From Myxococcales bacterium (GTDB lineage: Bacteria > Myxococcota_A > UBA9160 > UBA4427), in assembly GCA_014240165.1 (NCBI GenBank), contig JAAZXM010000003.1:26347-90346 (forward strand): DNA of 64,000 nt, written 5' to 3'. Of this stretch, positions 30,156-53,194 are shown piece after piece. The position numbers were made by a program, and so were the translations under genes. The first letter of the stretch is position 1, and each line of letters begins with the position of its first letter. The notes beneath the pieces were generated by a model. It was not told the DNA's origin. It worked only from the letters and a program-made list of their open reading frames with translations, and did no database searches.

Positions 30156-33092
30156 CTAGAGGCGGTGGAAGATGAAGTCGTTGCTGAAGAGGCCGCCGGG
30201 ATTCTGAACTTGGAGAAAGTGGATGCCCAGGGCTTCGGGGGGCGTCTCCAATTCGATTCGGATTCTCGCGTCGTTGCAAGTCGGGAGATCGCCGCTCACG
30301 CAGGTCACGTTCCCCTGCACCCTGCGGCCGTCGACGATCAGATGGGCCCCCGCCTGGATATGTCTTCCATTGACAGTCATGACCGACGCGCCCGACAAAA
30401 GGCGCGGGAATTGTTGTCGGCCGGACTGTTCCTGGATCGTGGAGCGGGTCCAGAGGGCGGGTTGTGGATGGTTGACATCGGTATTCACGCCCAGTCGCCC
30501 AGTCAGGGTGCCGACAAACCCCCCGCTTTCCGCAAGGGAGAGCAACTCGGCGCGGGTATGTGATTGCGGATTCTCGCCTCCTTCTATGTAGGCTCCCGCG
30601 CCGACCGTAGGATCGAATTCAAGGGCCACGTGGCGTGAACCCGCGCTATCGATGAATACACCCGTGCCCTGCAAAACGATGGCTTCCTCACTGGCTGATA
30701 ATTCCAAGGCATCGAGGAGGTCGGAGGTTTGGGCCAGGGCGATGGACTGCTCATTCAGGCTGACGCTGCGAGCGAAGGAACCCGAGAACCCGGTGCTTCC
30801 TTCGGTGACCATATTCCAGACCGGGTCGAAGCGAGGTCGGAAGCCCCATGAGAGCCGCCACACCGCCTGCTCGGGACTACCCACCGCTGAGATAGCCCGG
30901 TAGAAGCTGAAGTCGATGATGTTGAGGCGTCCTTGGGGAAGGATGAGCCAGCGATCGTAGGCGCCTCGCCAAGTGGGTGCGTCCATCCCGGTCCCGAACG
31001 TATTCGTACTGACAAGGAAGGGCATTCGATGGCAATCGCCGCAGACGTTGGGCTGGGGGTTTCCCTGCAGGTCGCCATCGATATGAAAGAGCCTGAAACC
31101 AGCCTGCGCAACATCGGACAACACGTTGTTGTAGGGGCGCCTTTGCGATGGGGGGTAGGGCACGCTCAGCAGGAATGTGGCCATTGCATCGCGTTCGGCA
31201 GCGCTCAAGGCACCTGCCTTGCCTTCATCGTTGCCCGGGCAATTGGCCACCATGCACATCGTTGATGCGAGAGAGCCGTCTACCAAGAAGCGCGTGCAAC
31301 TATCGGGATCATCGAGTTCGCAGTTCGGTGCTTCGATTCCGAAGATGTTCGAGGTATTCCTTCCTCCATAGGGGTCACCCGGAATCCCGTCCCAGTGGTA
31401 GGGGGTGGTATCTCGAAGGCCGCGGATCGGCATGGTGACGCGCGGCGGGATCTGGTTGCAGCCCGGAAGGTCGCAGATCGGCGTATCCAGGACCCAGAGC
31501 AGTTGGTCCGTGCCTCCATCCGGGTGGCAACTCTCGCAAGAGAACGTGCCGGTGGTCGAGGCACGGGCATCATTGAAGGCAATTCGTCCCGCTTTGACTA
31601 CGGGATCAGTGGGGTCTTCCAGGGGAATTGTCTCCAGGACCTCGGGTAGGAGAGGATCGGATAAATCCACCAGGGCGACACTGTTGTCTCCGACGCTCAA
31701 GACCCAGGCTCGGGTGGCTATGCCTTGGGGATCCGATTCGAGTGCGATCCCGCGCGGTACCGCGCCGACTTGTGTGCGCCCGAGGACCTGACCGCTCTCC
31801 GCTCCCAGCGTGAAGACACTATTCGAACCCGCTGCGCTGACGAGTAGCAGCGAGTCATCACCGCTGATTTGGATCGCGAACGGGGTTGCGAGTGCCAACT
31901 CGGGGTCGGGCTCCGCCGGGGGCAGCGGCTCGAGGTCGATGATTTCCGGCAGGCCGCATGCGGCGCTGCAATCGACTTGGGTAATCCCGTTGAGGAAGGC
32001 CCGATTATCCATTTCGCCCAAGCCGTCGGCCTCTGATCCGGCAAGTCCGTTGGCGTCATTTCTCGCATCGGTTTGGGTGACGTAGACCTGCCCAGTGGAG
32101 TCGACAGCCAGGCCGTAGAGCAGGGTTCCCATAGTATCGACGACATCCAATAATTCGTCTGTCGCCGTGTCGAAAACAAAGAGGTCCCGATCGGGAACCA
32201 GTGGGTGCTTGATGATATCCACGACTGCGCCCCTCGAGAGGACGTTGTTGCTGGTGATCGAGTGGGCCCTGGCGTCGAAAGTGCACAGGCCGTCCCCCAT
32301 GGTTCCGGCCAGCGAAGCTCCGACGCAGGTCGGGTCGCTCGCATCCATGCAGCAGCCGGAAAGCTGGGTCTGGTTATTGGATTCGAACGGGATTACGTAG
32401 AGTCGGCCGTCCCGAACCTTGATTGCGCGTGGATCCTGCGCGGGAATCTCCAAATTGTGGGTCACTTGGCGGGTTGCGGTATCGACAACCGCGATCTGGT
32501 TTTCCGAGGAGAGGGCGATATAGGCTTTTTCATCGCTGGCGAAGGCGATGCCCATGGGCTCGTCGAAGCGGGTTGATTTGGTGGCCGGGTCGAGATCCTG
32601 GATGGTGGCGACGACCTGGCGGTAGGTAGGGCTTTCCGGGTCGTTGTCGATCACGCTCACCGAGTCTGAGACGTGGTTGGAAGCCCAAACCTCCAGACCA
32701 TCCGGCCTCACTGCGAGACTTACAGGGTCTATGCCGACCTCGATCCGGGCCTCGACTCTTCGGCTAGCCACTCCGATGACATCGACCGTATCCGCCGGAG
32801 TATTGACGACGAAGACTTCTTCTCCTGCAACGGCGATCGGTGACGCGTGCGGGCTCATGAAATTCGGATGACCGACGGCGCTGACAGCGGCAGGCGGAGG
32901 AGTGGGTGGTTCCTGTGTGGCGGACTGGTCCCCCGCTTGCTCGCAGGCGGCCAGCGCGAGCACGACGCAGGAAATCGTGATTCGCAGGGCCGGAATCCAG
33001 CGCCATGAAGCCGCAGGGTCGAGCGGTTTGCGGTTATTCGCTTTCCGAGAAGTCGCGCGCGGTAAGAGCCAATGAAAAACCGATGAACCCAT
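30156..33092 (-). CDS. Lipoprotein with YncE/YVTN beta-propeller and di-heme cytochrome c (peroxidase/MauG-like) domain
   Basis: Lipobox LAAC. Propeller repeats VNTPADTVDVI, VGIDPVSLAV...SNHVSDSVSVI and VGAVPRGIAL. GRIAFND...CESCH and GFRLF...CGDCH heme sites. Start uncertain. Confidence 0.85.
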   Translation of the reverse strand: MGSSVFHWLLPRATSRKANNRKPLDPAASWRWIPALRITISCVVLALAACEQAGDQSATQEPPTPPPAAVSAVGHPNFMSPHASPIAVAGEEVFVVNTPADTVDVIGVASRRVEARIEVGIDPVSLAVRPDGLEVWASNHVSDSVSVIDNDPESPTYRQVVATIQDLDPATKSTRFDEPMGIAFASDEKAYIALSSENQIAVVDTATRQVTHNLEIPAQDPRAIKVRDGRLYVIPFESNNQTQLSGCCMDASDPTCVGASLAGTMGDGLCTFDARAHSITSNNVLSRGAVVDIIKHPLVPDRDLFVFDTATDELLDVVDTMGTLLYGLAVDSTGQVYVTQTDARNDANGLAGSEADGLGEMDNRAFLNGITQVDCSAACGLPEIIDLEPLPPAEPDPELALATPFAIQISGDDSLLLVSAAGSNSVFTLGAESGQVLGRTQVGAVPRGIALESDPQGIATRAWVLSVGDNSVALVDLSDPLLPEVLETIPLEDPTDPVVKAGRIAFNDARASTTGTFSCESCHPDGGTDQLLWVLDTPICDLPGCNQIPPRVTMPIRGLRDTTPYHWDGIPGDPYGGRNTSNIFGIEAPNCELDDPDSCTRFLVDGSLASTMCMVANCPGNDEGKAGALSAAERDAMATFLLSVPYPPSQRRPYNNVLSDVAQAGFRLFHIDGDLQGNPQPNVCGDCHRMPFLVSTNTFGTGMDAPTWRGAYDRWLILPQGRLNIIDFSFYRAISAVGSPEQAVWRLSWGFRPRFDPVWNMVTEGSTGFSGSFARSVSLNEQSIALAQTSDLLDALELSASEEAIVLQGTGVFIDSAGSRHVALEFDPTVGAGAYIEGGENPQSHTRAELLSLAESGGFVGTLTGRLGVNTDVNHPQPALWTRSTIQEQSGRQQFPRLLSGASVMTVNGRHIQAGAHLIVDGRRVQGNVTCVSGDLPTCNDARIRIELETPPEALGIHFLQVQNPGGLFSNDFIFHRL

Positions 33093-33640
33093 GGAGACGG
33101 CTGCCTTTATTCGGACTTGACGCGCGAGTCTAGCCAGATCCCGACTTCTCCGGAGCAATCGGTTCCCTTACGCGAGCTACGGCGCTTAGAGACCCGGTCG
33201 ACCCGCAGAACTTTAGGGTCGGCCCCATGCCGCCGTCGAAAGCCAAGTTGAAGCTTCCGATTCCGCGAAGCGCTCCAGTCGGTAGAGCATCAGTGCGGAT
33301 CCCCTACGACTCAAGATCTCGATTGCTCAAGTGATGCTTCGTGGGGGCTGGGAGGCCAGCAATATTTCATCGGAACGTGTGTTCTGAGTTGCGTGAGGGA
33401 CGCGATGAATTCAGTCGGAATTGCACTCTTGGCTACGGGAAAGACCTGAGGTTTATCTGCAGGAAACCCTTCGCGTGCTGATGGTTCATTCAATCAAGCG
33501 CTCCCAATCAAAATTGTTGGTCCAAGCCAGGAAGTTTCCCGGACTTCTTAATCATGTTCGGGAGATTCAAACGTTGGTTGCTCGCTGCCTTCTCCTAGTT
33601 GCATTTGTTCACGGAATTTTGAATCGGGAGTACGCATACC

Positions 33641-36600
33641 ATGACTACTACTGTTGCTCGCTTAGCCTCCTCAATCGGAATGAATTCCTCGAGAAATATC
33701 GTCGCCTTGGTTGGAGCCCTCGCGATGTCCTTGGTCATCGGTCCATTCGCTGCGCAAGCCGATGGGGATAAGAAGAAATCACGATCACCTTTTCCCCCCG
33801 CTGGCGATCCCTCCGCCTATACGGGCCCGTCGATTGCGGATGTGCCCGACGGCCTGCCCCATGCCAATGAAGGGGCCTTTGAAGGGGCCGGCGTACTCGG
33901 CAAAGACGCTTTGACGGAAAAAAATTCAGTATCGGAAGCTGAGCTCATCGAGGACCGGAAATTTGACGTTCCGACGGGCATGGCTCCGAGTCCACTATTT
34001 GGCGCTGCGCCCTTCAGTCAGCAGATGCTTCGCTTTGAAGAATTTGGAGTGAAAAAACTTCGATTGAAGAAAAAGCTGAAGAAGAACAAACAGCCGAAGA
34101 ATTGGGCCCCCTTGCCCGCACCGGCGAACGCACAGGCGATTCCCGATGGCGGCGCGCTCGATTCATTCCTGCGCCAATCGATCTGGCCCTTGCCCAGTGA
34201 ATTCGCGAATGAGCAGGACTCGAATCCCTGGCAGGCCCAGATCGAGGCCTGGCTCGGGCGATCCTTGGATAGTCCCCCGGCTGAAGGTCGACCGCCGGGA
34301 CAGGGCTGGGCGCATCAGCGCTGGAAAGAGTTCAAGCCCAAGGTCTATTACCAGACCGCGACCGCGGGAGCTCGGGTCAACGGCGGGCTGCGCGATCCCT
34401 TTCAGGATCATGGCTATGCCAATGGCGAGTTCGCTGCTGATGGCCTCTACTACAATACGTTGGGCGAAGAGGGTTTCGACGGGACCACTGCGGGCATTCC
34501 GGTTCGATTTCATCCCGCCATGCCGGAGCAGCAGTCGAGCACTGTTTGGACTTTTGACGGAACGTTCCCGCCCAAATTGCTCAAGGTGCGATACGGCCAG
34601 CCTGTGTTGATGCGGCAATACAACGCACTCCCCATCGATGTCGCCGAGAACGCGGGCTTTGGAATTCACACGCTGACTACCCATGAGCATAATGGCCACA
34701 ACCCGGCGGAGAGTGATGGCTATACCAATGCTTTCTTCTTTCCCGGTCAGTTCTACGACTATCGCTGGCCCATCGCCCTGGCTGGTCACGATTCGATCAA
34801 CAAAAAAGCAAAGGATTGGCGGGCGGGTCGGCCGGATGGCAAAGGCGGTATCAAGAGGATTCCTGGCGATTGGCGCGAAACCATGAGCACGCATTGGTAC
34901 CACGATCACATGCTCGACTATACGGCGCAAAATGTATACAAGGGCAACGCAGCGATGATGAACTACTACAGCGCGCTTGATCGCGGCAACGAGGGAATCA
35001 ATGATGGCGTGAATTTGCGGCTGCCGAGCGGAACAGCCTTGGATTGGGGCAACCGCGATTACGATGTGAATCTTCTGTTGGCCGAAAAGGCGTGGGATGC
35101 GTCCGGGCAACTGGCATTCAATCCCTTCAACCAGAAGGGGTTCATCGGCGACGCCATGACGGTGAATTGGCTCTATAAGCCCTATTTCGAGGTTCGGGCC
35201 CGGCGTTATCGATTCCGGCTTCTGAATGCTTCGGTTTCTCGCTACTTCAAGGTGGCCTTGGTCAATGAAGTTGGCGCACCCGTGCCCTTCTACATGGTCG
35301 CGAACGATGGAAATATCATGGAGCACACGGTGTATTTCGAAAATGGCGAACTGCCGACACTGGGAATCGCCGAACGCTACGACATCGTGATCGACTTCAG
35401 CGAATTCGAGCCCGGTTCCAAGCTCTACCTGGTGAATATGCTGCAACATAAGAATGGGCAAGTGACGGATGTGCCCATTCCCCTGGCGGATATCGCCAGT
35501 GGCGCCTACGCAGCCGAAGCTCAGGACATCGACTTCGATGGCGTTGCGGACGAGTGGGTCGATGGTGACCCAGTGGTTGGCCGCTTCCTCGAATTCCAAG
35601 TCCAGGAATACGCCGAGGTGGATCAGAGTATGGATCCTGCGCTCTACGTCGCTGGTGGGGAAAAAATGATTCCCCTGAATCGGCCGACGGAGGAGGAGCT
35701 GGCCGGCGCGTTGCATCGAACTTTTGAGTTCGAAAAAGAACAAACCGACGAGACTCCTTGGGTCATCGAGACAGATGGCGGCAAGGGGTATACGGCCGAC
35801 CCTCGAAGACTCGCTGCTGCGCCCGAAAAGAATTCGGGCGGCCTGGAAGTGTGGCGGCTCGTCAACAGTGGGACCTGGAGTCACCCGATCCATATCCACT
35901 TCGAAGAGGGAATCATCCTCAGGCGAAACGGAAAGCCGCCGCCGGAATGGGAGAAATGGGCGCGAAAGGACGTCTACCGGCTGGGGCCGCAGGAAGACAG
36001 CGGCGTCATGGTGGAAATCGCTTTTCGTTTCCGAGAATTTGCCGGGACATATATGGAGCATTGTCATAATACCCAGCACGAAGATCACGCGATGCTCTTG
36101 CGCTGGGATATCGAGCACCCCGGCCAGGTGGAGTTGATGCCGGTTCCCTTCCCGTCATGGGATGGCGTGAGCTATGTGGATACCCACGCTCTTCCCACTT
36201 TCCGCACGGGTGATGCAGTCGGCGAGTACGGGCCCGAAATGGATCCGGTTTCGCTCTGGGTCGAGGGCGCGACAATGGGGCAACTCGACGATATCCGCGA
36301 TATGCCGTTGGGCGATGCGTTGGATGAGCAACCCAATGAGCGTGGAACAATCACCTTCCCGCTGACGCTGGGGACGAATGACGATGACGGCGTGCTGACC
36401 GACGTGTGGTTTTTCTTGCACGATATCAGTGACGAAGCCCTGGCTGATGAAATGGGCCTGGCCTGGGGAGGTGCGCTTGTCGGTACTCCGGATGCGGCCA
36501 CCTCGACTGCGAGTATCGATCCCATCACGGGGCATTGGACCTTCTATGGAGATCTGCCCAATCCGGTGCATGCGGGAGATACCAACCCGGTTGGCATTCC

Positions 36601-37480
36601 TGATATTTTGAATGGCTGCGATCCCGGGAGCACTGATCCGTGCAATGACTACTCGCCGCTTCGCCGCATGGTGATCGACGGAAAAGAAGTCATCGTGAAT
36701 GCGATCATGGTCAAGTGGGGCGGCGAACCCTGGGAACAACTCCGCGTAGACCAGAGCTGTGTCAGTTTCCCCGAAACCCCTTGGAGTGATCCCAAGACCT
36801 GCGCCTATGTGGGTGCGGGTTGGGGCGAACTGAATGCTTCGGGCCAGGTTCTGGAATTGGAGACGGCGGTTCTGAATCCCTACGTGACTTTCAAATTGCA
36901 TAAATCATGGGCGGGAGAAGCCGATTATTTGCCTTATTACATCGTGCTGGACACGTTTGCGAGCAATTACGACGCTGGGCTCGACGAATGGGTCCCGAAT
37001 CATGGGCCTGCGAAAGCGATGGGCATTCCCTTTGTGCCCAAGCATGAGCATCTGGGGTCGGCAGGTGCGCCGCTGGTTCAGTTCATACCTCCCGTCTCGC
37101 TCTATCCGGGCAAGACTCCCGCCAATCCTCTGGGATACGGGCTGCAGGGCGGTGGTCCGCTCGGGGGTCAGGTGGGTGTGCCGGCCTATTTCATGCCTGA
37201 AGATGACTACAGCCCCATGTGGCATATCGGCTTCGCTCGCTGGCTTGAGCCGGCAACGGAAGTCGTGAAGGGATTCGAGCGGCTGAAGGAACTGCGTGCC
37301 GAAGGCAGGCTCGAGATCGTCGAATTCCCGCCGCCTCCGCAATTTGGGAGTGACAATTTCGATTTCGATCACCAGAACTCGGAGGGCAACGCGCGGCATA
37401 TCGTCAACTGTCCCACGACGATGACCATCGACGCTGCCATCCATGAGGCTCGCCAGGTCGACCAGCCGCCCCTTCCGTAG
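33641..37480 (+). CDS. Large secreted multicopper oxidase (McoA/MofA-like) with C-terminal extension
   Basis: Signal peptide ending AQA. All four Cu motifs are present: THEHNGH, HWYHDH, HPIHIH and HCHNTQHEDHAM. About 420 extra aa follow. Confidence 0.92.
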   Translation: MTTTVARLASSIGMNSSRNIVALVGALAMSLVIGPFAAQADGDKKKSRSPFPPAGDPSAYTGPSIADVPDGLPHANEGAFEGAGVLGKDALTEKNSVSEAELIEDRKFDVPTGMAPSPLFGAAPFSQQMLRFEEFGVKKLRLKKKLKKNKQPKNWAPLPAPANAQAIPDGGALDSFLRQSIWPLPSEFANEQDSNPWQAQIEAWLGRSLDSPPAEGRPPGQGWAHQRWKEFKPKVYYQTATAGARVNGGLRDPFQDHGYANGEFAADGLYYNTLGEEGFDGTTAGIPVRFHPAMPEQQSSTVWTFDGTFPPKLLKVRYGQPVLMRQYNALPIDVAENAGFGIHTLTTHEHNGHNPAESDGYTNAFFFPGQFYDYRWPIALAGHDSINKKAKDWRAGRPDGKGGIKRIPGDWRETMSTHWYHDHMLDYTAQNVYKGNAAMMNYYSALDRGNEGINDGVNLRLPSGTALDWGNRDYDVNLLLAEKAWDASGQLAFNPFNQKGFIGDAMTVNWLYKPYFEVRARRYRFRLLNASVSRYFKVALVNEVGAPVPFYMVANDGNIMEHTVYFENGELPTLGIAERYDIVIDFSEFEPGSKLYLVNMLQHKNGQVTDVPIPLADIASGAYAAEAQDIDFDGVADEWVDGDPVVGRFLEFQVQEYAEVDQSMDPALYVAGGEKMIPLNRPTEEELAGALHRTFEFEKEQTDETPWVIETDGGKGYTADPRRLAAAPEKNSGGLEVWRLVNSGTWSHPIHIHFEEGIILRRNGKPPPEWEKWARKDVYRLGPQEDSGVMVEIAFRFREFAGTYMEHCHNTQHEDHAMLLRWDIEHPGQVELMPVPFPSWDGVSYVDTHALPTFRTGDAVGEYGPEMDPVSLWVEGATMGQLDDIRDMPLGDALDEQPNERGTITFPLTLGTNDDDGVLTDVWFFLHDISDEALADEMGLAWGGALVGTPDAATSTASIDPITGHWTFYGDLPNPVHAGDTNPVGIPDILNGCDPGSTDPCNDYSPLRRMVIDGKEVIVNAIMVKWGGEPWEQLRVDQSCVSFPETPWSDPKTCAYVGAGWGELNASGQVLELETAVLNPYVTFKLHKSWAGEADYLPYYIVLDTFASNYDAGLDEWVPNHGPAKAMGIPFVPKHEHLGSAGAPLVQFIPPVSLYPGKTPANPLGYGLQGGGPLGGQVGVPAYFMPEDDYSPMWHIGFARWLEPATEVVKGFERLKELRAEGRLEIVEFPPPPQFGSDNFDFDHQNSEGNARHIVNCPTTMTIDAAIHEARQVDQPPLP

Positions 37481-37537
37481 GGGCGGCTGGGTCGGCAACG
37501 CCCGCATGCCATCTCGGCACTCAAAGAGGAATGACCC

Positions 37538-38893
37538 ATGACTGGTGAAATGAAAATCCGAGCTTCGTTGTTTTCGAAAAGTCTGGCCGCATGTGGAATC
37601 GTGCTCAGTCTCATCCTGGGTGCGATCTCCACCGAGGCCTCGAAATGGGGCGGCGAGTATTTCCCCAATATTCCCCTGGTGACCGAAGAAGGGGAAGAGG
37701 TGCGTTTCTTCGATGATCTGATCGAGGGGAAAGTAGTCGCCATCAACTTCATCTATACGACCTGCCCCGATACGTGTCCTCTCGAGACAGCTCAACTTCT
37801 GAAGGTTGAGAAGATTCTAGGTGAGCGAATGGGGCAGGACGTCTTCTTTTATTCCATTACAATCGATCCGGAAACCGATACCCCGGCCGTGATGAAGGAA
37901 TACAAAGAACGGTTCGGTGCAAGTTGGACGTTCCTGAGCGGCGATAAGGAAGACATCGTTCTCCTGCGGCGGAAACTCGGCCTCTATATCGACGAGATCC
38001 AGGATGGTTCCAAGAACCACAACGTGAACATGATCATCGGGAATCAGGGGACAGGTCGCTGGATGCGCCGCTCCCCCATGGAGAATCCCTATGTGCTGGC
38101 CGACCAATTGGGGAATTGGCTGACGGGTTGGAAGGCTCCTCAGCCAGAGGAAAGTTATGCTTCTGCTCCGAAGCTCCGGAATATTTCCACGGGGGAGCAG
38201 CTCTTCAGGACGCGCTGCGCGACCTGCCATAGCGTAAATGGCAGCGACGGCAGCAATGCCCTTGGGCCGGATCTACTGGGGGTGAACGATCGCCGGGATA
38301 AGGGCTGGCTCCTCAGCTGGCTCCAGGCTCCCGATCGAATGCTCGAAGCGGGGGATCCCATCGCGACTCAGCTCTACGAGGAATATGGCCGAGTCGCCAT
38401 GCCGAATATGCGACTGAATCGCGAGGAAGCCGAAGCCCTGTTGGATTATTTGGGAACCGAGACGACTCGATTGGAGAAAGCTGCGATCCGGGAGCAGTTC
38501 CTCTCGAGGCGTCGAAATCGGCCAGCTGGAGATGTGGTTGCTGTGATGAATGCCTGGGTTCGCGAGGCCGACGGGGCGGCTCGGATGAACGCCGGGTACA
38601 TGACGTTGGTCAACGCGGGCTCCAAGGATGTCCGCCTCGTCAAGGTTGAAAGCAAGGCATTCGACTACGTCGAGGTGCATGAGATGGCGCAGATCGACGG
38701 CCTGATGGAAATGCGGGAGATCGATCGCCTCGTGATCCCCGCCAAGGCTCAGGCAGAACTCGCTCCGGGCGGAAAGCATCTGATGATGTCGGGGCCGCGG
38801 GAACCGCTCGAGGCGGGGCAGCGGGTAGACCTTGTGCTGACCTTCGACTCGGGGATGAAGCAGACAGTGTCGGTTCGGGTCGCGGCCATGTAG
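37538..38893 (+). CDS. SCO1/SenC - cytochrome c - PCuAC copper chaperone triple fusion
   Basis: Signal peptide. SCO CPDTC and ITIDPETD. Heme CATCH with MPNM. PCuAC AWVR...AGYM...EVHEM...MEM...GGKHLMM. Confidence 0.92.
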   Translation: MTGEMKIRASLFSKSLAACGIVLSLILGAISTEASKWGGEYFPNIPLVTEEGEEVRFFDDLIEGKVVAINFIYTTCPDTCPLETAQLLKVEKILGERMGQDVFFYSITIDPETDTPAVMKEYKERFGASWTFLSGDKEDIVLLRRKLGLYIDEIQDGSKNHNVNMIIGNQGTGRWMRRSPMENPYVLADQLGNWLTGWKAPQPEESYASAPKLRNISTGEQLFRTRCATCHSVNGSDGSNALGPDLLGVNDRRDKGWLLSWLQAPDRMLEAGDPIATQLYEEYGRVAMPNMRLNREEAEALLDYLGTETTRLEKAAIREQFLSRRRNRPAGDVVAVMNAWVREADGAARMNAGYMTLVNAGSKDVRLVKVESKAFDYVEVHEMAQIDGLMEMREIDRLVIPAKAQAELAPGGKHLMMSGPREPLEAGQRVDLVLTFDSGMKQTVSVRVAAM

Positions 38894-38989: not shown

Positions 38990-39538
38990 CTAGTTGGGGG
39001 CGCGCTGCCAGGTCTGACTCCGGCCGAAGGCCTTGAGCCCGATATATCCGCGGACGATCAATTTGTCGCCTTCCAGCTTCAGGATACAGCTGTAGCTTTT
39101 GCCGCTATCGGGGTCCAGGATCTGCCCGCCGCTCCATTCGGGGCCGTCCGCTTGCATTCCCCAGAGGATGCGCATGCCTGCGATGGGCTTGTCCTTGAGT
39201 TCACCCTGGCAGGCGGTGCATAGCGCTGCAGGATCCGCCCCCTCCTTGATGATTTGAACGACGCGGGCGGCGAGCGTGTCCCCGGATTCGTAGATTCGGA
39301 TGATCGAGACCGGAGTCTTGCCGTCATCGTCGATACTCATCCATTCCCCCACCGGAGAGAGCGAGGAGGCGACGCCCGGGCCCGCGATAACCCAGCTCAG
39401 GCAAAGGGCGATTGCTGTAGCCAGCGGAACTCTCAAGGAAAAGCCTCTGGAAGGTACGGCTCGCTGATGTCTGGCGTGCGAGTTCTGCAGAGAAGCTGTG
39501 CATTGTCGACGTTTCATCGGTTGCCGGGAAAAGATCAT
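38990..39538 (-). CDS. DUF2147 domain protein
   Basis: SPVGEW, CTACQG, GGQILDPDSGKSY and VRGYIG...GRSQTW motifs. Start overlaps the upstream stop (ATGA); alternative start 39517. Confidence 0.88.
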   Translation of the reverse strand: MIFSRQPMKRRQCTASLQNSHARHQRAVPSRGFSLRVPLATAIALCLSWVIAGPGVASSLSPVGEWMSIDDDGKTPVSIIRIYESGDTLAARVVQIIKEGADPAALCTACQGELKDKPIAGMRILWGMQADGPEWSGGQILDPDSGKSYSCILKLEGDKLIVRGYIGLKAFGRSQTWQRAPN

Positions 39539-40701
39539 TTGCCGAGGGGCCCGATCATGGTTTCCGCGATCTTGCTCCGTTGGTGGACGCCGTCTCCGTA
39601 AAGAGATTGGTTGTGCATGCTTCGCTTGAAGAAAATGTGCACGTCGGATTCCCATGTAAAGCCGATGCCGCCGTGCAGTTGCACGGAGCGGTCCGATATG
39701 AATGCGCCTGCGTCTGAGGCAGCACTCTTCGCCATACGGGCCGCATCAAGGGAGCTTGGGTCCCCGACGTCGATGAAACTCGCCGCGCGGTAGATCAGCG
39801 AGCGAGCCCGGTCGATATCCATCATGGCATTGACCAAGGGGTGCTTGACCGCTTGGAAAAAGCCGATGGGGCGGTCGAATTGTTTGCGATCCTTTGCATA
39901 TTCGACGGTGGCTTGCAGTTGCCATTCCGCACAACCGCAGAGGTCCGCGGCAACGGTGACGAGGATAGACGGCCATGCCCGGAGGAGGGCGGCCTCGGCG
40001 GCAGGTCCGATAACGTTCTCGGGCGGGATACGCACCTCTTGGAGGTGGAGAGTCGCCTGGTCGCGGGTGAGGTCATGGATATGATCCTGGCTGAGATCAA
40101 GGCCTTTGGATTCCGCCGGCACGGCGCAGAGCACCCGCTCGTCGCCGATTTGCGCCGCAGTGAGGAAGAAATCCGACTTGAAGGCGTCCTGGACGAAAAA
40201 TGCGCTGCCGTCCAATACGAGATCATCCCCATCGCGGCGAGCGGTGATTTCGCCATCGGCGGGTTCCCAACTCCCCCTGGAGTCGGTGATCGCCAGGGAG
40301 GCAGTCGCGCCTGCGGCGATCCGGTTCATCCAAAGTTCCGTTCCCGGTCCCTCGGCCTCTCGCAGTACGTAGCTGGCATTCAGAGTCGCAACGAGAGGGG
40401 AGGGAAGGGCGTGACGCCCGATTTCCTCAACGAGGCCGACAATGCCGGCTTGCTTGAAGCCGACACCCCCCGCCGCCTCTGGGATGGCGAGCCCTGTCCA
40501 GCCCAATTCGACAATTTCCTTCCAGAGGGCTTCATCCCATGCCTGGCGTTCACCCCTTTCGTAGACGGCATCCGAGTCCTTGCAGACGAGATCGCGCAAA
40601 GTCTCGATGGGGAACCGCTCGCCGAGAAAACTGCGAGCGAGATCTCGCAGCATCGCCTCGTCTTCGCCGAAGCCAAAATCTTTCGGGGGTGCATCGCTCA
40701 T
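39535..40701 (-). CDS. Acyl-CoA dehydrogenase family protein (probable non-catalytic subunit of a heteromeric ACAD)
   Basis: ELGWTGLAIPE, RKQFDRPIGFFQAVKH and QLHGGIGFTWE motifs. Confidence 0.9.
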   Translation of the reverse strand: MSDAPPKDFGFGEDEAMLRDLARSFLGERFPIETLRDLVCKDSDAVYERGERQAWDEALWKEIVELGWTGLAIPEAAGGVGFKQAGIVGLVEEIGRHALPSPLVATLNASYVLREAEGPGTELWMNRIAAGATASLAITDSRGSWEPADGEITARRDGDDLVLDGSAFFVQDAFKSDFFLTAAQIGDERVLCAVPAESKGLDLSQDHIHDLTRDQATLHLQEVRIPPENVIGPAAEAALLRAWPSILVTVAADLCGCAEWQLQATVEYAKDRKQFDRPIGFFQAVKHPLVNAMMDIDRARSLIYRAASFIDVGDPSSLDAARMAKSAASDAGAFISDRSVQLHGGIGFTWESDVHIFFKRSMHNQSLYGDGVHQRSKIAETMIGPLGK

Positions 40702-40762
40702 ACTCTTTTCCCTCTCGGTCGTGCGCCCGGCGAAGGGCAGGGGGCTGGGATCGTGTCGGGAG

Positions 40763-41965
40763 TCATTTTGATTTCGGAAGCCCGAGAACTCGCTCGCCCA
40801 GGATATTGCGCTGGATCTCGTTGGATCCCGCCGCGATGGTCATCCCGTAGGTGTTCATGTAGGACATTGGCCAATGGCCCTTGTCGGGCGCCGCACTGTC
40901 GTTCTTGTAGAGAGTTGAACGCGCACCTGCGATATCCACGCCGAGTCGCGCGAGCCGTTGCTGGAATTCGCTCGAGCTGACCTTCTGTTGCAGGGGGATT
41001 CGCATGGGGTGGTCGTTCAGGGCCGGAACGCGCGCTCGCCGCGATGAACTTCTAATGCCCTCGTGAGTAATGGCCAGTTGAACGATTGCATCGCGGGTGA
41101 CCGGGTCATCGGCTGCATTCTGGCCGTTTCGCTGGCTCCCTCGAGCGAGTTGAATCAGTTTGTCGAGGGGATTCGACGCCGAGTTTCCGCCTCCGGCACC
41201 CTCGCCAGCACCGCGCTCGAAGGTGAGCGTTGTCATGGCCACGGTCCAGCCCTTGCCCACATCATCGAGGCGCAATGCGTCGGGAATCACGGCGTCGTCG
41301 AAGAAAACTTCGTTGAAACCGGTTTCTCCCGTCATCTTGACCAGGGGCTTGACGCTCACGCCCGGGTGGCCCTCGATGGGACAGAGGAAATAGGTCAGGC
41401 CATCGTATTTGTGGTCGCGGCTCGTTCGGGCCAGGAGAATCATCCATTTGGCGAAGTGCCCGAAAGAGGTCCAGACCTTGTGGCCATTGACGACCCACTC
41501 GTCGCCGCTGCGGGATGCGAAGGTCTGCTGGTTGGCCATGTCGGACCCAGCGCCGGGTTCGCTGAAACCCTGGCACCAGATCTCCTCCGCCGAGAGGGCG
41601 CCGGGAATGAATTTCCGCTTCTGTTCTTCGGTGCCATGTTCCAGAACGGTGGGCACCATCATGGTGAGACCGACGACGTTGACCATGAAGGGAGCGCCCG
41701 CATCGGCGAGCGCACGGTTCGCGATTGACTGGCAGGCATTGTGGCCATGCCCCCCGTAATCGGTGGGAACGTCCGTGCCGACAAGGCCGGCTTCGTAGCA
41801 GCGTCGCTGCCAATCCCTCAAGTAGTCGATCTGCGGAGCGGTTTTGACCTCGAGCGGCGTCAAGGGCAGCCGGACGCTGGGGGCGGGCGCGGGGTTCTGG
41901 GCGGTCCATTGCCTCGCGTATTGCTGAAACTCGAGTTGTTCAGAAGTCAGGCTGGCGTCCGGCAA
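40763..41965 (-). CDS. Acyl-CoA dehydrogenase (probable catalytic subunit of a heteromeric ACAD)
   Basis: TTG after GAGGAG. WCQGFSEPGAGSD, NGHKVWTS, FNEVFFD, TTLTFER and TIAAGSNEIQRNILGERVLGLP motifs. Confidence 0.92.
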   Translation of the reverse strand: MPDASLTSEQLEFQQYARQWTAQNPAPAPSVRLPLTPLEVKTAPQIDYLRDWQRRCYEAGLVGTDVPTDYGGHGHNACQSIANRALADAGAPFMVNVVGLTMMVPTVLEHGTEEQKRKFIPGALSAEEIWCQGFSEPGAGSDMANQQTFASRSGDEWVVNGHKVWTSFGHFAKWMILLARTSRDHKYDGLTYFLCPIEGHPGVSVKPLVKMTGETGFNEVFFDDAVIPDALRLDDVGKGWTVAMTTLTFERGAGEGAGGGNSASNPLDKLIQLARGSQRNGQNAADDPVTRDAIVQLAITHEGIRSSSRRARVPALNDHPMRIPLQQKVSSSEFQQRLARLGVDIAGARSTLYKNDSAAPDKGHWPMSYMNTYGMTIAAGSNEIQRNILGERVLGLPKSK

Positions 41966-42201
41966 AGGTCTCTCCTCAATAGGGGGGCCGGGGAACACGC
42001 GTCGGCGGGTATGGCTCGTTTCCCCACGGATGATCTCGCAACCCAGAGTTACGTATAGCTTTCCGGGTGGGGAGTCGCTCGTACCACCGAAAGGGACATG
42101 AAGCCTTCCAGAGGGCAAAGAGCGGGGGTTTCGCTTCTCTCCGCCCGCGGGCTCTTCTATAGTGATCGGGTTGAAAAAGAGGTTTTCCCGAGGGAGAAGT
42201 C

Positions 42202-44427
42202 ATGAGCGAGTCGATGCAAACCGAAGACTCATCGCAAAGCAAGCATGTGGTCTGCACGATCTGTGATATCGGCTGCCAGTTGCGTGCCGAAGTCAAAGAT
42301 GGCCGGCTGGCGCGAATCCTTCCCCACGAGAACCCGCTCCTGGCCCGGAATATCTGTTATAAGGGCGTCGCGGCGCCAGATATTCATAACCACGAGGACC
42401 GCCTGCGCGTTCCGCTGAAGCGGGTCGGCGAGCGTGGCGAGGATCGCTGGGAGGAGATCTCCTACGACCAGGCCATGGATGAGATTGCCGAGCGCCTATC
42501 CGCCGTGATCGAGGCGCATGGTCCTGAAGCATTCGCGGTATCCACATCGGGTTGGAATACCCAAACAACGCACAGCATGGACCGCCGTTTCATGAATCTG
42601 CTGGGTAGCCCGAATTGGATCAGCGGGGTTTCGCTCTGCGCGGGAAATACCGCGGCGGTGAATCGCTTGACCTACGGCTGGTTCCCCATGCCCGAAATAG
42701 CCAATACGAAATGCGTCGTTCTCTTCGGTCATAATCCGCGCCCGCATTCGTGGACGCCGATCTACAACGCGATCAATTTCGCCCGCTCCCAGGGGGCGAA
42801 GGTGATTGTCCTCGACCCGAGAGTTTCAAGCCAGGCCGAAGTCGCCGATCTGCATCTTCGCCTTCGGTCGGGAACGGACGCAGCCATGTGCCTTGGGTGG
42901 CTGAAGGTCATCTTTGATGAAGGCCTCTACGACGAAGACTTCGTTCGGGATTGGTGCGTGGGCTTCGAGGAACTCCGGGCGCGGGTGGACGAATACCCCC
43001 TCGAGCGAGTCGAGGCGATCACCGGTGTCGACCGGGAGTTGATCGCCGAAGCCGCTCGGATGTACGCAAGCGCCGATTCTGCAGTGATTCCCTGGACTCC
43101 GATTACGGATCAGCAGATTTCTTCGACCTCGGCGATTCGGCTGCACTCGATTCTTCGGGCCGTGACGGGAAACCTGGACACACCCGGGGGTGAGGGCTTG
43201 GGCGGTTTCAATCCGGGGTATATCCCGGAATCCGAGCTTGGCCTGCACGAAGTGCTTTCGACTGAACAGAAAGCGAAACAACTCGGGTATGACCAACATC
43301 CTGCCTACACCTATCGCGTGGCGGAGATTCTCCGCGATGCCACTGAGAAGACCTGGGGCTACCCCTACGCAGATATCGTGATGGGCTGCCAGATGGCGAA
43401 CCCCTCGCTGGTTTTCCGCGCGATGGAGAATGCCGATCCCTATCCCATCAAGGCGTTCTTTGCCTTGGGGAACAACGCGCTGCTCAGCTACCCCAATCAG
43501 AATCAGATTCACCGGGCGTTGCTGAATCAAGATCTCATCGTGTCGCATGAAATATTCATGACACCGACGGCCATGCTGGCGGATTACGTGCTTCCGGGAG
43601 ACGTTTTCAGCGAGCGCAACCATGTGGCGGACTCCTGGAGTTGGAGCACTCGCCTCACACTCTCGGAAAAGGCGGTGGACCCACCGCCCGAGGCATCGAG
43701 CACGTTCCAATTCTGGTCGGATCTCGCCCAGCGGATGGGGCTGGGGGAGCATTTTCCTTGGAAGAGCTTGGATGAAGTCCTCGATCACCGCTTGTCACGC
43801 TCGGGACGGAAATTCTCGGACTTCGCGGCGGGGGCGGGAATGGAAGCACCGCCTGCGGAGTACCGGAAATACGAGAAGATCGGATTCGCGACGCCCTCAG
43901 GAAAGGTAGAACTCTATTCCAGCGTTTTGGAGGAACTCGGCTTCGATCCATTGCCCTATCACCGGGATGGAGCCGCGACCAGTGCGGATTACCCGTATCG
44001 GATCTTCACGGGCGTTCGCGAGGACGCATTCTTCCAGACGGGTCAGCGGAATATCCGCGTCCTGCGCCGAAAATCCCCTCTGCCCCAGCTCTTTCTCCAT
44101 CCCGAAGACGCCACCCGGGAAGGCCTGTCCGATGGCGATTGGGCGCGTCTCGAAACCGAGTTCGGCCACGTGACGGCCCAGGTTTCCGTTCAGGAATCCA
44201 TGAAGGAGGGGCATGTCCGGGTACCCCATGGCTGGTGGTATCCCGAACTTCGGGGCAAGGAGCCCCTGGCGGGCGCCTTTCTCTCGAGTGACGCCGTGCT
44301 CTGTTCGGACGAAGCAGAATACCTGGATTACGAACAGGGTATTCCGAACTTCAAGGGGTTCCCAGGCCGTGTGGTACAGGCTGAGGCCCCCAAGAGTTTT
44401 CCCGCCATGTTCTCCGAGAAGCGTTAG
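42202..44427 (+). CDS. Acetylene hydratase-like W/Mo-bisPGD enzyme (DMSO reductase family)
   Basis: CTICDIGC...ICYK [4Fe-4S] motif with Asp after Cys2. RRFMNLLGSPNW...LCAGNT, WCVGFEEL, IPW, ATPSGKVELYSSV, VREDAFFQ and PHGWW...EQGIPNF closely match recalled Pelobacter acetylenicus AH segments. No signal peptide. Confidence 0.85.
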   Translation: MSESMQTEDSSQSKHVVCTICDIGCQLRAEVKDGRLARILPHENPLLARNICYKGVAAPDIHNHEDRLRVPLKRVGERGEDRWEEISYDQAMDEIAERLSAVIEAHGPEAFAVSTSGWNTQTTHSMDRRFMNLLGSPNWISGVSLCAGNTAAVNRLTYGWFPMPEIANTKCVVLFGHNPRPHSWTPIYNAINFARSQGAKVIVLDPRVSSQAEVADLHLRLRSGTDAAMCLGWLKVIFDEGLYDEDFVRDWCVGFEELRARVDEYPLERVEAITGVDRELIAEAARMYASADSAVIPWTPITDQQISSTSAIRLHSILRAVTGNLDTPGGEGLGGFNPGYIPESELGLHEVLSTEQKAKQLGYDQHPAYTYRVAEILRDATEKTWGYPYADIVMGCQMANPSLVFRAMENADPYPIKAFFALGNNALLSYPNQNQIHRALLNQDLIVSHEIFMTPTAMLADYVLPGDVFSERNHVADSWSWSTRLTLSEKAVDPPPEASSTFQFWSDLAQRMGLGEHFPWKSLDEVLDHRLSRSGRKFSDFAAGAGMEAPPAEYRKYEKIGFATPSGKVELYSSVLEELGFDPLPYHRDGAATSADYPYRIFTGVREDAFFQTGQRNIRVLRRKSPLPQLFLHPEDATREGLSDGDWARLETEFGHVTAQVSVQESMKEGHVRVPHGWWYPELRGKEPLAGAFLSSDAVLCSDEAEYLDYEQGIPNFKGFPGRVVQAEAPKSFPAMFSEKR

Positions 44428-44454: not shown

Positions 44455-45909
44455 CTAATAGTCTCGCCAGCGCTGCTTGATATGGGATTGTCGGATCGCG
44501 ATTTCTTCCTGTCTTTCTTCGGCGCCGACCTTCGGGGTGCCGGCGGGCAAGATGTCGCCCAGAGCTTCGAGCTTGATCAGCGTGGCTTCGGCGGTGGGGG
44601 CCTGATCGGTAGGCGGATTCTCGCGGAAGAGAAATCGCATGGCGTGGATGCCCTTTTTGAGCCCGGTGGTATCGACCCAGCCCTGCACCCCCGGGTCCTG
44701 GTGGGCAATGATGTAGTAGCGCGAACCATCGCTGGCGATGGGAAGTTGGTGCCCGCTCAAACTTGAAGTGTAATTCTGTTGGTCGGGGCCCTCGAACCAG
44801 AAGTTGTTCAACTGGAAGCCAATATAGTGGGGCTCCAGCGGCGCCGTGACCTTGATCACAAGAGCCTCGTCCTGGGCGATATGAAAGAGTCCGGCTGCGT
44901 AGAGTTGGCGCGCCCCGGCAACTCCGCCCGCCGTGAAGGGGGGAGCCGGCGGGTTGATTCCGTTGATGGGGAGAGCCCGCTTCCCGTCGCCGTTGACATC
45001 ACGCCTCACCTCGAGGGCCATTTCCTGAACGAGTTGCCAAAAGCGGATTTGATTGGGCAATTCCCGGCCGATTTCTTCGAGCTTTTGGCTAATGACTTTC
45101 GCTGTGATGGGTGGGCGATTCTCACCCAGGGCATCGAGGCGAACGATCTCCATCTCGAGTGGGACTTCCTGCTCCCAATCCGAGAAGATTTCGCGGATGG
45201 ATAACCAGCGGGCTTCGCGGGTGGCGACCTCACCCGTGGCGGGGCAGGGCAGGCTGGCTCGAGTGAGCAGGAAATTGCCCTTATGCCTCTTGGGTCGTTC
45301 CGGTCCGAGAAGGATCTCGAAGCGATTTTCGGAGTCGAGGATCAAGTCAAAGCTGTTGACGAAATCCAAGGTTTGATTGCGGCATGAGGCCATTTCCGCC
45401 AGATCCCCCGTGGACCCGGGGATGGAGGTAATCGTCTGGAAGGTCACGATCCGAGGGGCCTTCGGCCCCGGGAGGCCGCGTTCCGAGGTCTTCCATTCAC
45501 GGGTGTCCGCGATTTGGCCCCTGATCCGGTAGAGGCCCTCGCCGTCCAAGGGGGCCTTCAAATACATCGCGTCGGGATTCTCTCCCGTCCACTTTCGAAG
45601 CATGTCCACCGAGCGGAAGAATTCCGGGTAGCGGGGGTCCTGACGAAGTTCGGTTTCGAGAATCCGGCCGAGATGAGCGAGGAGGTAGCGATAGCCCTCA
45701 GCGAGATTTCGATCGCTGGGCGGAGGCGGAAAGGCGGCCGGATCGGTCAAGCTCTCCTGGGCCGTTGCCAAGCCTTCCATGAACTTGGCCCATCCCTGTT
45801 CGAGGCTTTCGTCGGTCCACGCGGGGCTCGCCACGAGAAAGAGAGAAAGCACAAAAGACGAAATGAGCAGAAGTTGGGAAAAACGGGCGTGCATGCGGGC
45901 AATCCTCAT
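44455..45909 (-). CDS. Secreted DUF1214-like protein
   Basis: Signal peptide. AEGYRYL, GENPDAMY, REIFSDW, DEALVI and IIAHQDPGVQGWVDTTG motifs. Confidence 0.65.
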   Translation of the reverse strand: MRIARMHARFSQLLLISSFVLSLFLVASPAWTDESLEQGWAKFMEGLATAQESLTDPAAFPPPPSDRNLAEGYRYLLAHLGRILETELRQDPRYPEFFRSVDMLRKWTGENPDAMYLKAPLDGEGLYRIRGQIADTREWKTSERGLPGPKAPRIVTFQTITSIPGSTGDLAEMASCRNQTLDFVNSFDLILDSENRFEILLGPERPKRHKGNFLLTRASLPCPATGEVATREARWLSIREIFSDWEQEVPLEMEIVRLDALGENRPPITAKVISQKLEEIGRELPNQIRFWQLVQEMALEVRRDVNGDGKRALPINGINPPAPPFTAGGVAGARQLYAAGLFHIAQDEALVIKVTAPLEPHYIGFQLNNFWFEGPDQQNYTSSLSGHQLPIASDGSRYYIIAHQDPGVQGWVDTTGLKKGIHAMRFLFRENPPTDQAPTAEATLIKLEALGDILPAGTPKVGAEERQEEIAIRQSHIKQRWRDY

Positions 45910-51873: not shown

Positions 51874-51994
51874 AGGGGCGCGACCTTAGCTCGCTTCTCG
51901 TGCCGGGGTGATCCGAAGAGATCCGCCACCGGGCCGCCCGTCCCGGGTTGCCTATGCTAGGTCTTCTCCATTCTCAGCTGCCTCGAGGCGTCGC

Positions 51995-53194
51995 ATGCCC
52001 GGTTCGGCCCAATCCCGTATTTGTTTTCCCGAGACCGATTTCGCCCTTCTGCCCGGGCAGGGCAATCCGCTCCCCGCTTTCCACTCCATGATGGCTGAGT
52101 TGCGCGATCAGCGTCCCGTTGCGCCGATCCACTTTCACGGTCAGCCCGCCTGGCTGCTGACTCGTCACGCCGATGTGGCAGAAGCCTTTCGGGACGAAAC
52201 GCTCTTTTCGGCCCGGGCGATCCAGACCGCCAACACTTTTCCCGTCATGGGGCGCAATATGATGGGCATGGAGGGTGATGAGCATCGCCTCAACCGGGCC
52301 CTGGTCTCGCCCCATTTCAAGTTGCGCTTGATGCCGGGGGTTGTCGAGGAGATGGTGCAACCGCTTTGCCACGCCCTGGTGGACGGGTTCGCCCATCGGG
52401 GTGAGGTGGACCTCGTGCGCGAGTTCAATCAACGACTGCCCCTGGTGGCCATCTGCAGGATTCTGGGCATTCCACCCGAGGACGATGAGCGCCTGGCTCG
52501 CTGGGCCATGGCGCTGATCCACTATCCCTGGGATCCCCAGGGCGCATTGGCGGCATCCAAGGAATTCACTCAATACCTGGCGGGGCTGCTGGCCGAGCGC
52601 CGGGCCGCGCCCGGCGATGATTTATTGTCCGCCCTCTCCTGCGAGGAGGTGGAAGGGCATCGTCTATCAGACGACGAGATCTTCTCCTTCGTTCGTGTCC
52701 TCTTTCCTGCCGGCGCAGACACCACCTATCTCGCCTTGGGTTCGTTGATGGTTGGCCTGCTGGGAGGCCCCGGTGGCCTGGATTCATTTCGGGGCGACGC
52801 TGAAGCTCAGGCCGCGGCCGTGGAAGAGACCCTGCGCTGGGAACCCCCGACGGCCTTGCTGCCCAGGATGACCACCGGGGGAGGAGAGTTTCGGGGAGAA
52901 CGTCTGGGTCCGGACACCGTGGTCCTGCTGGGGATCGGTCCTGCGAATCGGGATCCCGAGGTCTTCCCCGATCCAGATCGCTTCGACCCCGGTCGCAAGA
53001 CCGCAGGGCATCTGGCTTTCGGTCTCGGCAATCACTTTTGCCTGGGCTCTCACCTGGCCCGGTCGGAAATGCGCGTGGCGCTCGGGGTGCTCCTCGAACG
53101 CTTCGATGAGATCGAGTTGGTGGAAACGCCCGTGATGGAAGGCGCCGTCATGCGTGGTCCCCATCGCCTTCAGGTCCGTTTTTCTTGCGCATGA
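51995..53194 (+). CDS. Cytochrome P450
   Basis: I-helix AGADTT, EETLR, ANRDP and heme motif FGLGNHFCLG. Confidence 0.95.
   Translation: MPGSAQSRICFPETDFALLPGQGNPLPAFHSMMAELRDQRPVAPIHFHGQPAWLLTRHADVAEAFRDETLFSARAIQTANTFPVMGRNMMGMEGDEHRLNRALVSPHFKLRLMPGVVEEMVQPLCHALVDGFAHRGEVDLVREFNQRLPLVAICRILGIPPEDDERLARWAMALIHYPWDPQGALAASKEFTQYLAGLLAERRAAPGDDLLSALSCEEVEGHRLSDDEIFSFVRVLFPAGADTTYLALGSLMVGLLGGPGGLDSFRGDAEAQAAAVEETLRWEPPTALLPRMTTGGGEFRGERLGPDTVVLLGIGPANRDPEVFPDPDRFDPGRKTAGHLAFGLGNHFCLGSHLARSEMRVALGVLLERFDEIELVETPVMEGAVMRGPHRLQVRFSCA

Follow-up and report, generated by a model that had tools for sequence, protein, structure and literature searches.

A full-length acetylene hydratase homologue with clade-fixed pocket substitutions in an aerobic marine genome

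Acetylene hydratase (AH) is the only non-redox enzyme of its superfamily that we know of. Positions 42202 to 44427 of a 64,000-nucleotide stretch of contig JAAZXM010000003.1 from a Myxococcales bacterium (the whole stretch is hereafter the window) encode a protein that closely resembles it, and the host of this gene is an aerobe: its genome (4.28 Mb, 94% complete) carries two heme-copper oxidase subunit I genes, and the window also holds a P450 gene and a multicopper-oxidase-like gene. By published accounts, a single AH has been characterised, and it originates from a strict anaerobe (PMC7858054, PMC12096430, PMC6013536). The locus raises the question of whether its product is a hydratase and, if so, of what. 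An initial annotation, made from the DNA letters alone, had placed the gene in an aerobic-looking genome, as we also find, and had assigned it to a new hydratase clade acting on a different or larger substrate.

The product of 42202-44427 (the query) is unambiguously a full-length homologue of AH. A phmmer search of PDB sequences returned 2e7z_A, the AH chain, as the top match (E 3.6e-193, 647 bits), aligned from residues 14-719 of the query to positions 2-718 of the chain; the second-best match, polysulfide reductase 2vpw, lay far behind (2e-64). An AlphaFold2 model of the query, built from a 60-row alignment (pLDDT 92.7, pTM 0.93), superimposed on 2e7z with TM scores of 0.93/0.94 and a root-mean-square deviation (rmsd) of 1.8 Å over 736 columns at 43% identity, and all other structures gave TM scores <=0.80 and rmsd >=4.5 Å. 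This comparison with 2E7Z, which the initial annotation had called for, predicts that the overall domain arrangement of AH is present. [quoted passage not shown] The gene, its domains and the residues discussed below are as follows; AH numbering is the 2e7z chain position plus 3, which reproduces Cys9/12/16/46, Asp13 and Cys141 of PMC12096430.

42202..44427, plus strand: gene for the AH-like bis-MGD/[4Fe-4S] enzyme (741 amino acids, ATG start, intact open reading frame)
42244..42390, plus strand: Molybdop_Fe4S4 domain, residues 15-63 (Pfam, 5.2e-05, above cut-off)
42265..42267, plus strand: codon of Asp22, equivalent to the catalytic Asp13 of AH (2e7z_A alignment)
42400..43731, plus strand: Molybdopterin oxidoreductase domain, residues 67-510 (Pfam, 2.3e-41, above cut-off)
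42553..42555, plus strand: codon of Trp118 at the position of AH Ile113, the first pocket substitution (alignment ungapped here)
42637..42642, plus strand: codons of Cys146-Ala147, the metal ligand Cys141 and the position of Ile142, the second pocket substitution (ungapped block)
42751..42753, plus strand: codon of Trp184, equivalent to AH Trp179, in a segment absent from non-AH relatives (alignment)
43093..43095, plus strand: codon of Trp298, equivalent to AH Trp293 (alignment)
43636..43638, plus strand: codon of Trp479, equivalent to AH Trp472 and Trp in the query's tight clade
44005..44241, plus strand: Molydop_binding domain (molydopterin dinucleotide-binding), residues 602-680 (Pfam, 1.5e-18, above cut-off)
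44014..44034, plus strand: V605-R606-E607-D608...F611, equivalent to the Arg606 and Phe611 region of AH (alignment)

Every residue that the initial annotation had assigned to an intact catalytic core lies where it was claimed. In the 2e7z_A alignment, C18, C21, C25 and C52 correspond to the [4Fe-4S] ligands Cys9, Cys12, Cys16 and Cys46, I23 to Ile14 and K54 to Lys48, and the equivalence of D22 with Asp13 and of C146 with Cys141, on which the relationship to AH had been made to hang, is borne out. Asp13, which adjoins Cys12, is specific to the AH subfamily (PMC12096430). Three runs noted as near-identical to AH, RRFMNLLGSPNW, WCVGFEEL and ATPSGKVELYSSV, are identical in the query and 2e7z. Like AH (2E7Z, EC 4.2.1.112, from Syntrophotalea/Pelobacter acetylenica), the query is a single subunit of ~730 amino acids with no signal peptide, and the two share the Cys motif, Asp13, Lys48, Cys141, Trp179/293/472, Arg606 and Phe611. 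No twin-arginine motif could be read at the N-terminus, so the protein is probably cytoplasmic, as AH is; with no conserved neighbour in 80 related loci (see below), it has the features of a partner-free cytoplasmic monomer. In sequence and fold, it matches the AH subfamily in every feature but one, the precise hydrophobic ring of the substrate pocket.

Other family assignments were rejected. No curated NCBIfam model reached its cut-off with the query. The best match, FdhF (TIGR01591), scored 316.9 bits against a cut-off of 666.25; FdhF has selenocysteine/Cys-His at the metal ligand, where the query has Cys-Ala. Nor is the protein PsrA/PhsA, since PhsA scored 283.5 bits against a cut-off of 694, there is no twin-arginine motif and PsrB/C partner genes were not found nearby. 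A search of the ESM Atlas returned generic molybdopterin-oxidoreductase clusters only.

The ring that fits acetylene in AH reportedly consists of Ile14, Ile113, Ile142, Trp179, Trp293 and Trp472, as Seiffert is said to have described in 2007. Part of this set is confirmed in PMC7970554. The query retains four of the six residues; unlike AH, which has Ile at both positions and came from an anaerobe, it has Trp118 at position 113 and Ala147 at position 142, and it belongs to an aerobic host equipped with heme-copper oxidases. The stretch immediately preceding the Cys ligand diverges too (GVSLC in the query, AMYMC in 2e7z). By side-chain volume, the change of Ile113 to Trp adds roughly what the change of Ile142 to Ala removes. 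The pair is nearly volume-neutral and the pocket therefore appears to be re-shaped, with no sign of enlargement; together with the finding that Ala142 occurs only with Trp113 (see below), this leaves the larger substrate of the initial annotation without specific backing. [quoted passage not shown] The query clade naturally has that Ala at 142, beside the bulkier Trp at 113.

Both substitutions extend to all close relatives. We assembled a close set of 121 sequences, comprising the query and its 120 best database clusters (73-99% identity). C18, C21, D22, C25, C52, K54, W118, C146, A147, W184 and W298 are invariant in this set (121/121), and I23 is kept in 118. Judged by these sequences, the two pocket substitutions are fixed in the clade and not drift. 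Relatives with 72-82% identity are carried by 80 genome contigs from at least five phyla, with titles that name Halieaceae, OM182, Azotimanducaceae (Pseudomonadales), Myxococcota, Actinomycetota, Acidobacteriota, Thalassospira and a single Bacteroidota bin. When these relatives are placed on a tree, phylum labels need six changes against a minimum of four, a pattern compatible with a small number of transfers between phyla and vertical inheritance thereafter; the query clusters with three Myxococcota rows (99% support). Genomes of the same genus have copies that are 81-82% identical, and the carrier of the query is accordingly a probable marine member of the Myxococcota. The spread of the gene is patchy, with 9 of 41 related genomes carrying it (the window's own included) and 2 of 301 evenly sampled genomes from the class of one gammaproteobacterial carrier (E <= 1e-150). 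Besides the best holder, five sequencing runs from three studies, described as marine or marine plankton metagenome, hold at least half of the words sampled from the gene. In RNA data, four libraries belonging to three studies contain 1-4 contigs each, of 151-298 nt, mostly 95-99% alike and covering the gene in part; these stem from relatives and come without a control for DNA contamination, and they are at most a hint of expression.

To place this clade, we searched 1.84 billion cluster representatives exhaustively and obtained 17,051 matches at E <= 1e-3, with 1,949 at <= 1e-30. In a distant comparison set of 130 full-length 50%-cluster representatives, three (P0121, P0123 and P0124) have both Asp13 and the Trp179 segment, three have Asp13 without that segment, and in the remaining 124, position 13 is occupied by a different residue or falls in a gap. 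Relatives with <=39% identity to the query lack Asp13 and the Trp179 segment. A search from P0122 uncovered a much wider aerobic group, 50-60% identical to the query, with protein names that include Maricurvus, Marinobacter, Shewanella, Alteromonas, Trinickia, Paraburkholderia, Bradyrhizobium and Lutimaribacter. This wider group amounts to thousands of database proteins, some of them automatically annotated "acetylene hydratase"; the clade is no rarity.

We built a family tree of 75 rows (maximum-likelihood quick search, LG+G4, SH-aLRT support only). Sequences with Asp13 form a monophyletic group with 100% SH-aLRT support, and the query lies within it, as the initial annotation had anticipated. 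At the base of this group are P0123 and a protein from Rhodococcus opacus paired with P0121. A 64-row clade (support 97) divides into a branch with Ala/Leu and Trp/Leu at positions 113/142 and a branch that is mostly Trp/Ala; inside the latter (97) is the query's tight clade, with a support of 100 and a stem of 0.55 substitutions per site. Sister clades have Phe, Tyr or Leu instead of Trp at position 472. Among 150 sampled Asp13-group sequences, a sample picked by similarity that is biased and phylogenetically dependent, Trp113 occurs in 138; Ala142 accompanies it in 107 of the 138, as against none of the 12 sequences without Trp113. The pairs at 113/142 vary by sub-clade (Trp/Ala, Trp/Leu, Trp/Met, Ala/Leu, Leu/Met), and AH has Ile/Ile. 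AH is not among the 75 rows, and we judged its place from the bit scores of eight proteins against 2e7z, among them P0271 (701), P0283 (665), the query (647), P0121 (646), P0124 (612), P0123 (607) and the R. opacus protein (580). These scores suggest that AH lies closer to the large aerobic clade than does the R. opacus protein.

Paralogs with different pockets bear on the role of the substituted positions. One locus of a Thalassospira metagenome-assembled genome (L051:5311-10184) has two tandem AH-like genes, 52-53% identical, with a MarR gene between them; at positions 113/142/472 their products have Ala/Met/Phe and Trp/Ala/Trp, respectively. Two proteins of Maricurvus nonylphenolicus, presumably encoded in one genome, have Trp/Leu/Phe (P0275) and Trp/Ala/Leu (P0326). 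A common core combined with differing pockets in paralogs argues that these positions may tune substrate choice. Positions 113 and 142 differ among sub-clades and between tandem paralogs, so we read them as probable specificity determinants. Ahead of the tandem Thalassospira genes are genes for an AraC regulator and a metal-dependent hydrolase (PF10118); two isochorismatase-family genes and then an integrase gene come after them.

We propose that the product of 42202-44427 is a cytoplasmic single-subunit enzyme of the AH subfamily of dimethyl sulfoxide-reductase-type (bis-MGD) molybdo/tungsto-enzymes, and that it is most likely a hydratase with the mechanism of AH. C18, C21, C25 and C52 would bind one [4Fe-4S] cluster, and Cys146 would bind molybdenum (Mo)- or tungsten (W)-bis-MGD. 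By that mechanism, water between the reduced metal and Asp22 would be added across a small unsaturated substrate, which would lie over the metal in a hydrophobic pocket, and there would be no net redox change. The clade-fixed Trp118 and Ala147 would re-shape this pocket. The mechanism of AH is itself still disputed (PMC12096430). Taking positions 113 and 142 as specificity determinants, we suggest tentatively, as our leading reading, that the substrate range of the clade may differ from acetylene or extend beyond it; a different small terminal alkyne, or some unsaturated molecule of comparable size, would be an example. Of the new hydratase clade that had been postulated, the part that stands is a large clade with fixed pocket changes and with no member described as characterised; the larger substrate has no specific support. 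AH-like database proteins have already been acknowledged as uncharacterised (PMC12096430), and our full-text searches on acetylene hydratase and acetylenotrophy yielded no paper that describes the aerobic Trp113/Ala142 clade, although the Akob 2018 survey and Table S5 of PMC7858054 may cover it.

Several observations weigh against a substrate other than acetylene. Four of the six ring residues, as well as Arg606 and Phe611, are the same as in AH. A volume-neutral pair of changes, with Ala142 found only beside Trp113, would fit a compensated pocket that is still able to hold acetylene. A second AH-like copy was seen in 1 of the 80 loci, and the argument from paralogs comes down to this one tandem locus and one further, presumed genome. 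Recurrence of neighbouring genes is weak, with no family in more than 14 of the 80 loci, and neighbour counts in the sister group are inflated by closely related soil contigs. Finally, a gene that stands alone and has no accompanying transporter would also be in keeping with a gas that diffuses freely.

Hence, the clade might instead comprise genuine aerobic acetylene hydratases, probably in a Mo form, in which Trp118 fills the space vacated by Ala147 and the pocket still fits acetylene. Such enzymes would scavenge trace acetylene in oxic seawater and soil, and the acetaldehyde formed would enter general metabolism. We regard this as possible but doubtful. It is consistent with the full catalytic core and AH fold, with the restriction of Ala142 to a Trp113 background, with a gene that needs neither partner nor transporter, and with the genes for ModA, MoaA and three MoeA proteins in the genome. 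Bradyrhizobium proteins lie inside the Trp/Ala super-clade, and a Bradyrhizobium acetylenotroph has been reported. Acetylenotrophs are known among aerobes, R. opacus with its Mo-dependent enzyme being one (PMC7858054); the initial annotation, in stating that AH is known mainly from anaerobes, was therefore incomplete. Against this reading, the Pelobacter enzyme is the only acetylene hydratase recognised as characterised (PMC7858054), and no gene-to-function link is known for any aerobic homologue.

We identified an Asp13-group homologue of 786 amino acids, 42-43% identical to the query, on plasmid pRop44186_a of R. opacus DSM 44186 (L089:9031-11391). This strain is reportedly one of the acetylene-degrading isolates, although our literature search returned nothing to confirm it. 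Like the query, the plasmid-encoded protein has Asp13, Cys141, Lys48 and the three Trp residues, and an aerobic host; unlike the query, it has Leu142, Lys in place of Arg606 and a position-113 loop that is three residues shorter. Because of the shorter loop, the presence of Ile at position 113 depends on the alignment, and only Leu142 is securely aligned. We consider this protein a candidate for the acetylene hydratase, Mo-dependent and aerobic, of R. opacus. As AH scores nearer to the aerobic clade than this protein does, acetylene-linked lineages may bracket the query. The plasmid gene, annotated as a molybdopterin-dependent oxidoreductase, lies on an island that is flanked by transposase genes and rich in both transposases and integrases; a ferritin-like gene, fdxA and moeZ are also found there.

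Against genuine acetylene hydratases stand the side-by-side paralogs with different pockets and the very low ambient concentration of acetylene in the sea. No gene for acetaldehyde oxidation is linked to the clade: aldehyde dehydrogenase genes do not recur near the gene in the 80 loci or in 44 metagenome loci of the sister group (44 of 80 such loci, the 36 more distant or later-numbered ones being left out). Moreover, the pocket Ile-to-Ala mutant of AH loses most of its activity (PMC6013536).

A hydratase of either kind would be excluded if the query were a redox bis-MGD enzyme, such as a cytoplasmic reductase or dehydroxylase that receives electrons through [4Fe-4S] and is related to AH by ancestry only. 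Nearly all members of the superfamily are oxidoreductases, and Lys48 is an electron-relay residue in related enzymes; the [4Fe-4S] ligands and Lys48 are retained in the query, and MarR regulators, which often sense phenolics, recur upstream of the gene. Among characterised enzymes, those most closely related to AH are the catechol dehydroxylases, which were gathered at identity cut-offs of ~29-30% (PMC7028382). These enzymes (Dadh, Cldh and others, from gut Actinobacteria) use bis-MGD as the query does, but perform reductive chemistry and have partner subunits. The query is set apart from them by that published level of identity, and equally distant relatives lack Asp13 and the Trp179 segment; indirectly, this makes its membership in the group unlikely. 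More generally, a redox function is unlikely for a protein that shares 43% identity with AH and possesses the Asp13 and Trp179 segment missing from relatives at or below 39%. The 80 loci have no conserved electron-transfer or membrane-anchor subunit gene near the AH-like gene, and no NCBIfam reductase model matched at its cut-off.

[quoted passage not shown] MES shows that a metallopterin module related to AH can carry out C-S bond formation, but its identity to AH is only 27%, it carries a fused cysteine desulfurase and it comes from strict anaerobes (PMC9516567). The query, with its three MopB domains only, lacks the C-terminal pyridoxal phosphate-dependent cysteine desulfurase and is not MES, and neither a desulfurase nor a histidine methyltransferase gene recurs nearby in the 80 loci. 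That the protein is an inactive relic of AH, with a natural Ala where an Ala mutation cripples AH, is very unlikely given an intact open reading frame, invariance of the 11 other checked sites and of Ile23 in 118 of 121 sequences, retention in five phyla with 72-83% identity across them and, as weak evidence, the short contigs in RNA libraries.

The gene represents a very large clade that is strongly conserved among oxygen-respiring bacteria of sea and soil. It bears on the possible existence of an alkyne or acetylene sink in aerobic oceans, and on whether the AH mechanism can operate with molybdenum and withstand oxygen. More speculatively, these proteins might be oxygen-compatible, probably Mo-containing alkyne hydratases that form a trace-acetylene sink in oxic seawater or that are the first natural AH-type enzymes to act on substituted or longer alkynes; we consider this somewhat unlikely. 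If the latter case were true, positions 113, 142 and 472 would constitute a readable specificity code across thousands of proteins. Pocket residues that set specificity would be of use to studies of mechanism and to biocatalytic alkyne hydration. Cultured carriers exist, among them Sneathiella marina (P0039), Maricurvus nonylphenolicus and Thalassospira, making the question of the clade's substrate directly testable.

We surveyed the host genome for tungstate transport and cofactor synthesis, a check that the initial annotation had recommended, with mixed results. The molybdate transporter protein ModA and MoaA scored above their cut-offs and three MoeA genes are present, whereas a MobA-like gene, which adjoins another MopB gene (C103), fell below its cut-off. 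WtpA was not found in the host genome, and TupA-like (159 of 400 bits) and TupB-like (125 of 320 bits) proteins remained below equivalog cut-offs. The TupA-like substrate-binding protein is encoded at G000:C73:16762-18324 (L107:1378-2940), and matches no other family, with the TupB-like permease gene adjacent; in this genome of an aerobic marine bacterium, the pair is possibly an ABC transporter for tungstate or molybdate. Molybdenum and tungsten are both possible metals of the AH-like enzyme. Six other MopB-family paralogs in the host genome are 28-35% identical to the AH-like protein (L002-L008).

The AH-like gene is apparently monocistronic, with opposite-strand genes on either side. The surrounding features of the window are as follows.

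30156-33158, minus strand: 1000-residue open reading frame with no Pfam match at 1e-5 and with YVTN-type beta-propeller repeats (NCBIfam)
33641-37480, plus strand: multicopper-oxidase-like gene, 1279 amino acids, with DUF7482
33641-38893, plus strand: the multicopper-oxidase/DUF7482 gene followed by a SCO1/SenC-cytochrome c-PCuAC copper chaperone fusion, which looks like a copper-handling or oxidase module
39535-42118, minus strand: two adjacent acyl-CoA dehydrogenase genes, upstream of and divergent from the AH-like gene
44455-45909, minus strand: 484-residue open reading frame with a hydrophobic N-terminus, convergent with the AH-like gene; an amidohydrolase gene comes next, outside these coordinates
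51908-53194: P450 gene

The 484-residue reading frame had no Pfam match at E <= 1e-5 and no NCBIfam match at E <= 1e-3, and was matched in 1 of the 80 related loci, at 28% identity. We rejected the window's neighbours as functional partners of the AH-like gene: each of 15 was found in 0-10 of the 80 loci, at the paralog level of ~27-45% identity, and we detected no synteny around the gene, same-genus genomes included. De novo clustering of the flanking open reading frames in the 80 loci gave scattered short-chain dehydrogenases/reductases as the most frequent neighbour family (14 loci), followed by a MarR gene directly upstream on the same strand (12), an MFS_2 transporter (9), a sulfatase (7) and P450 genes (7). 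Neighbours that recur in the 44 sister-group loci are MarR, TetR, MFS, glutathione S-transferase and alpha/beta-hydrolase genes. Genes for P450, luciferase-like monooxygenase, thiolase and carboxyltransferase abound in the window, a content that suggests lipid or hydrocarbon catabolism.

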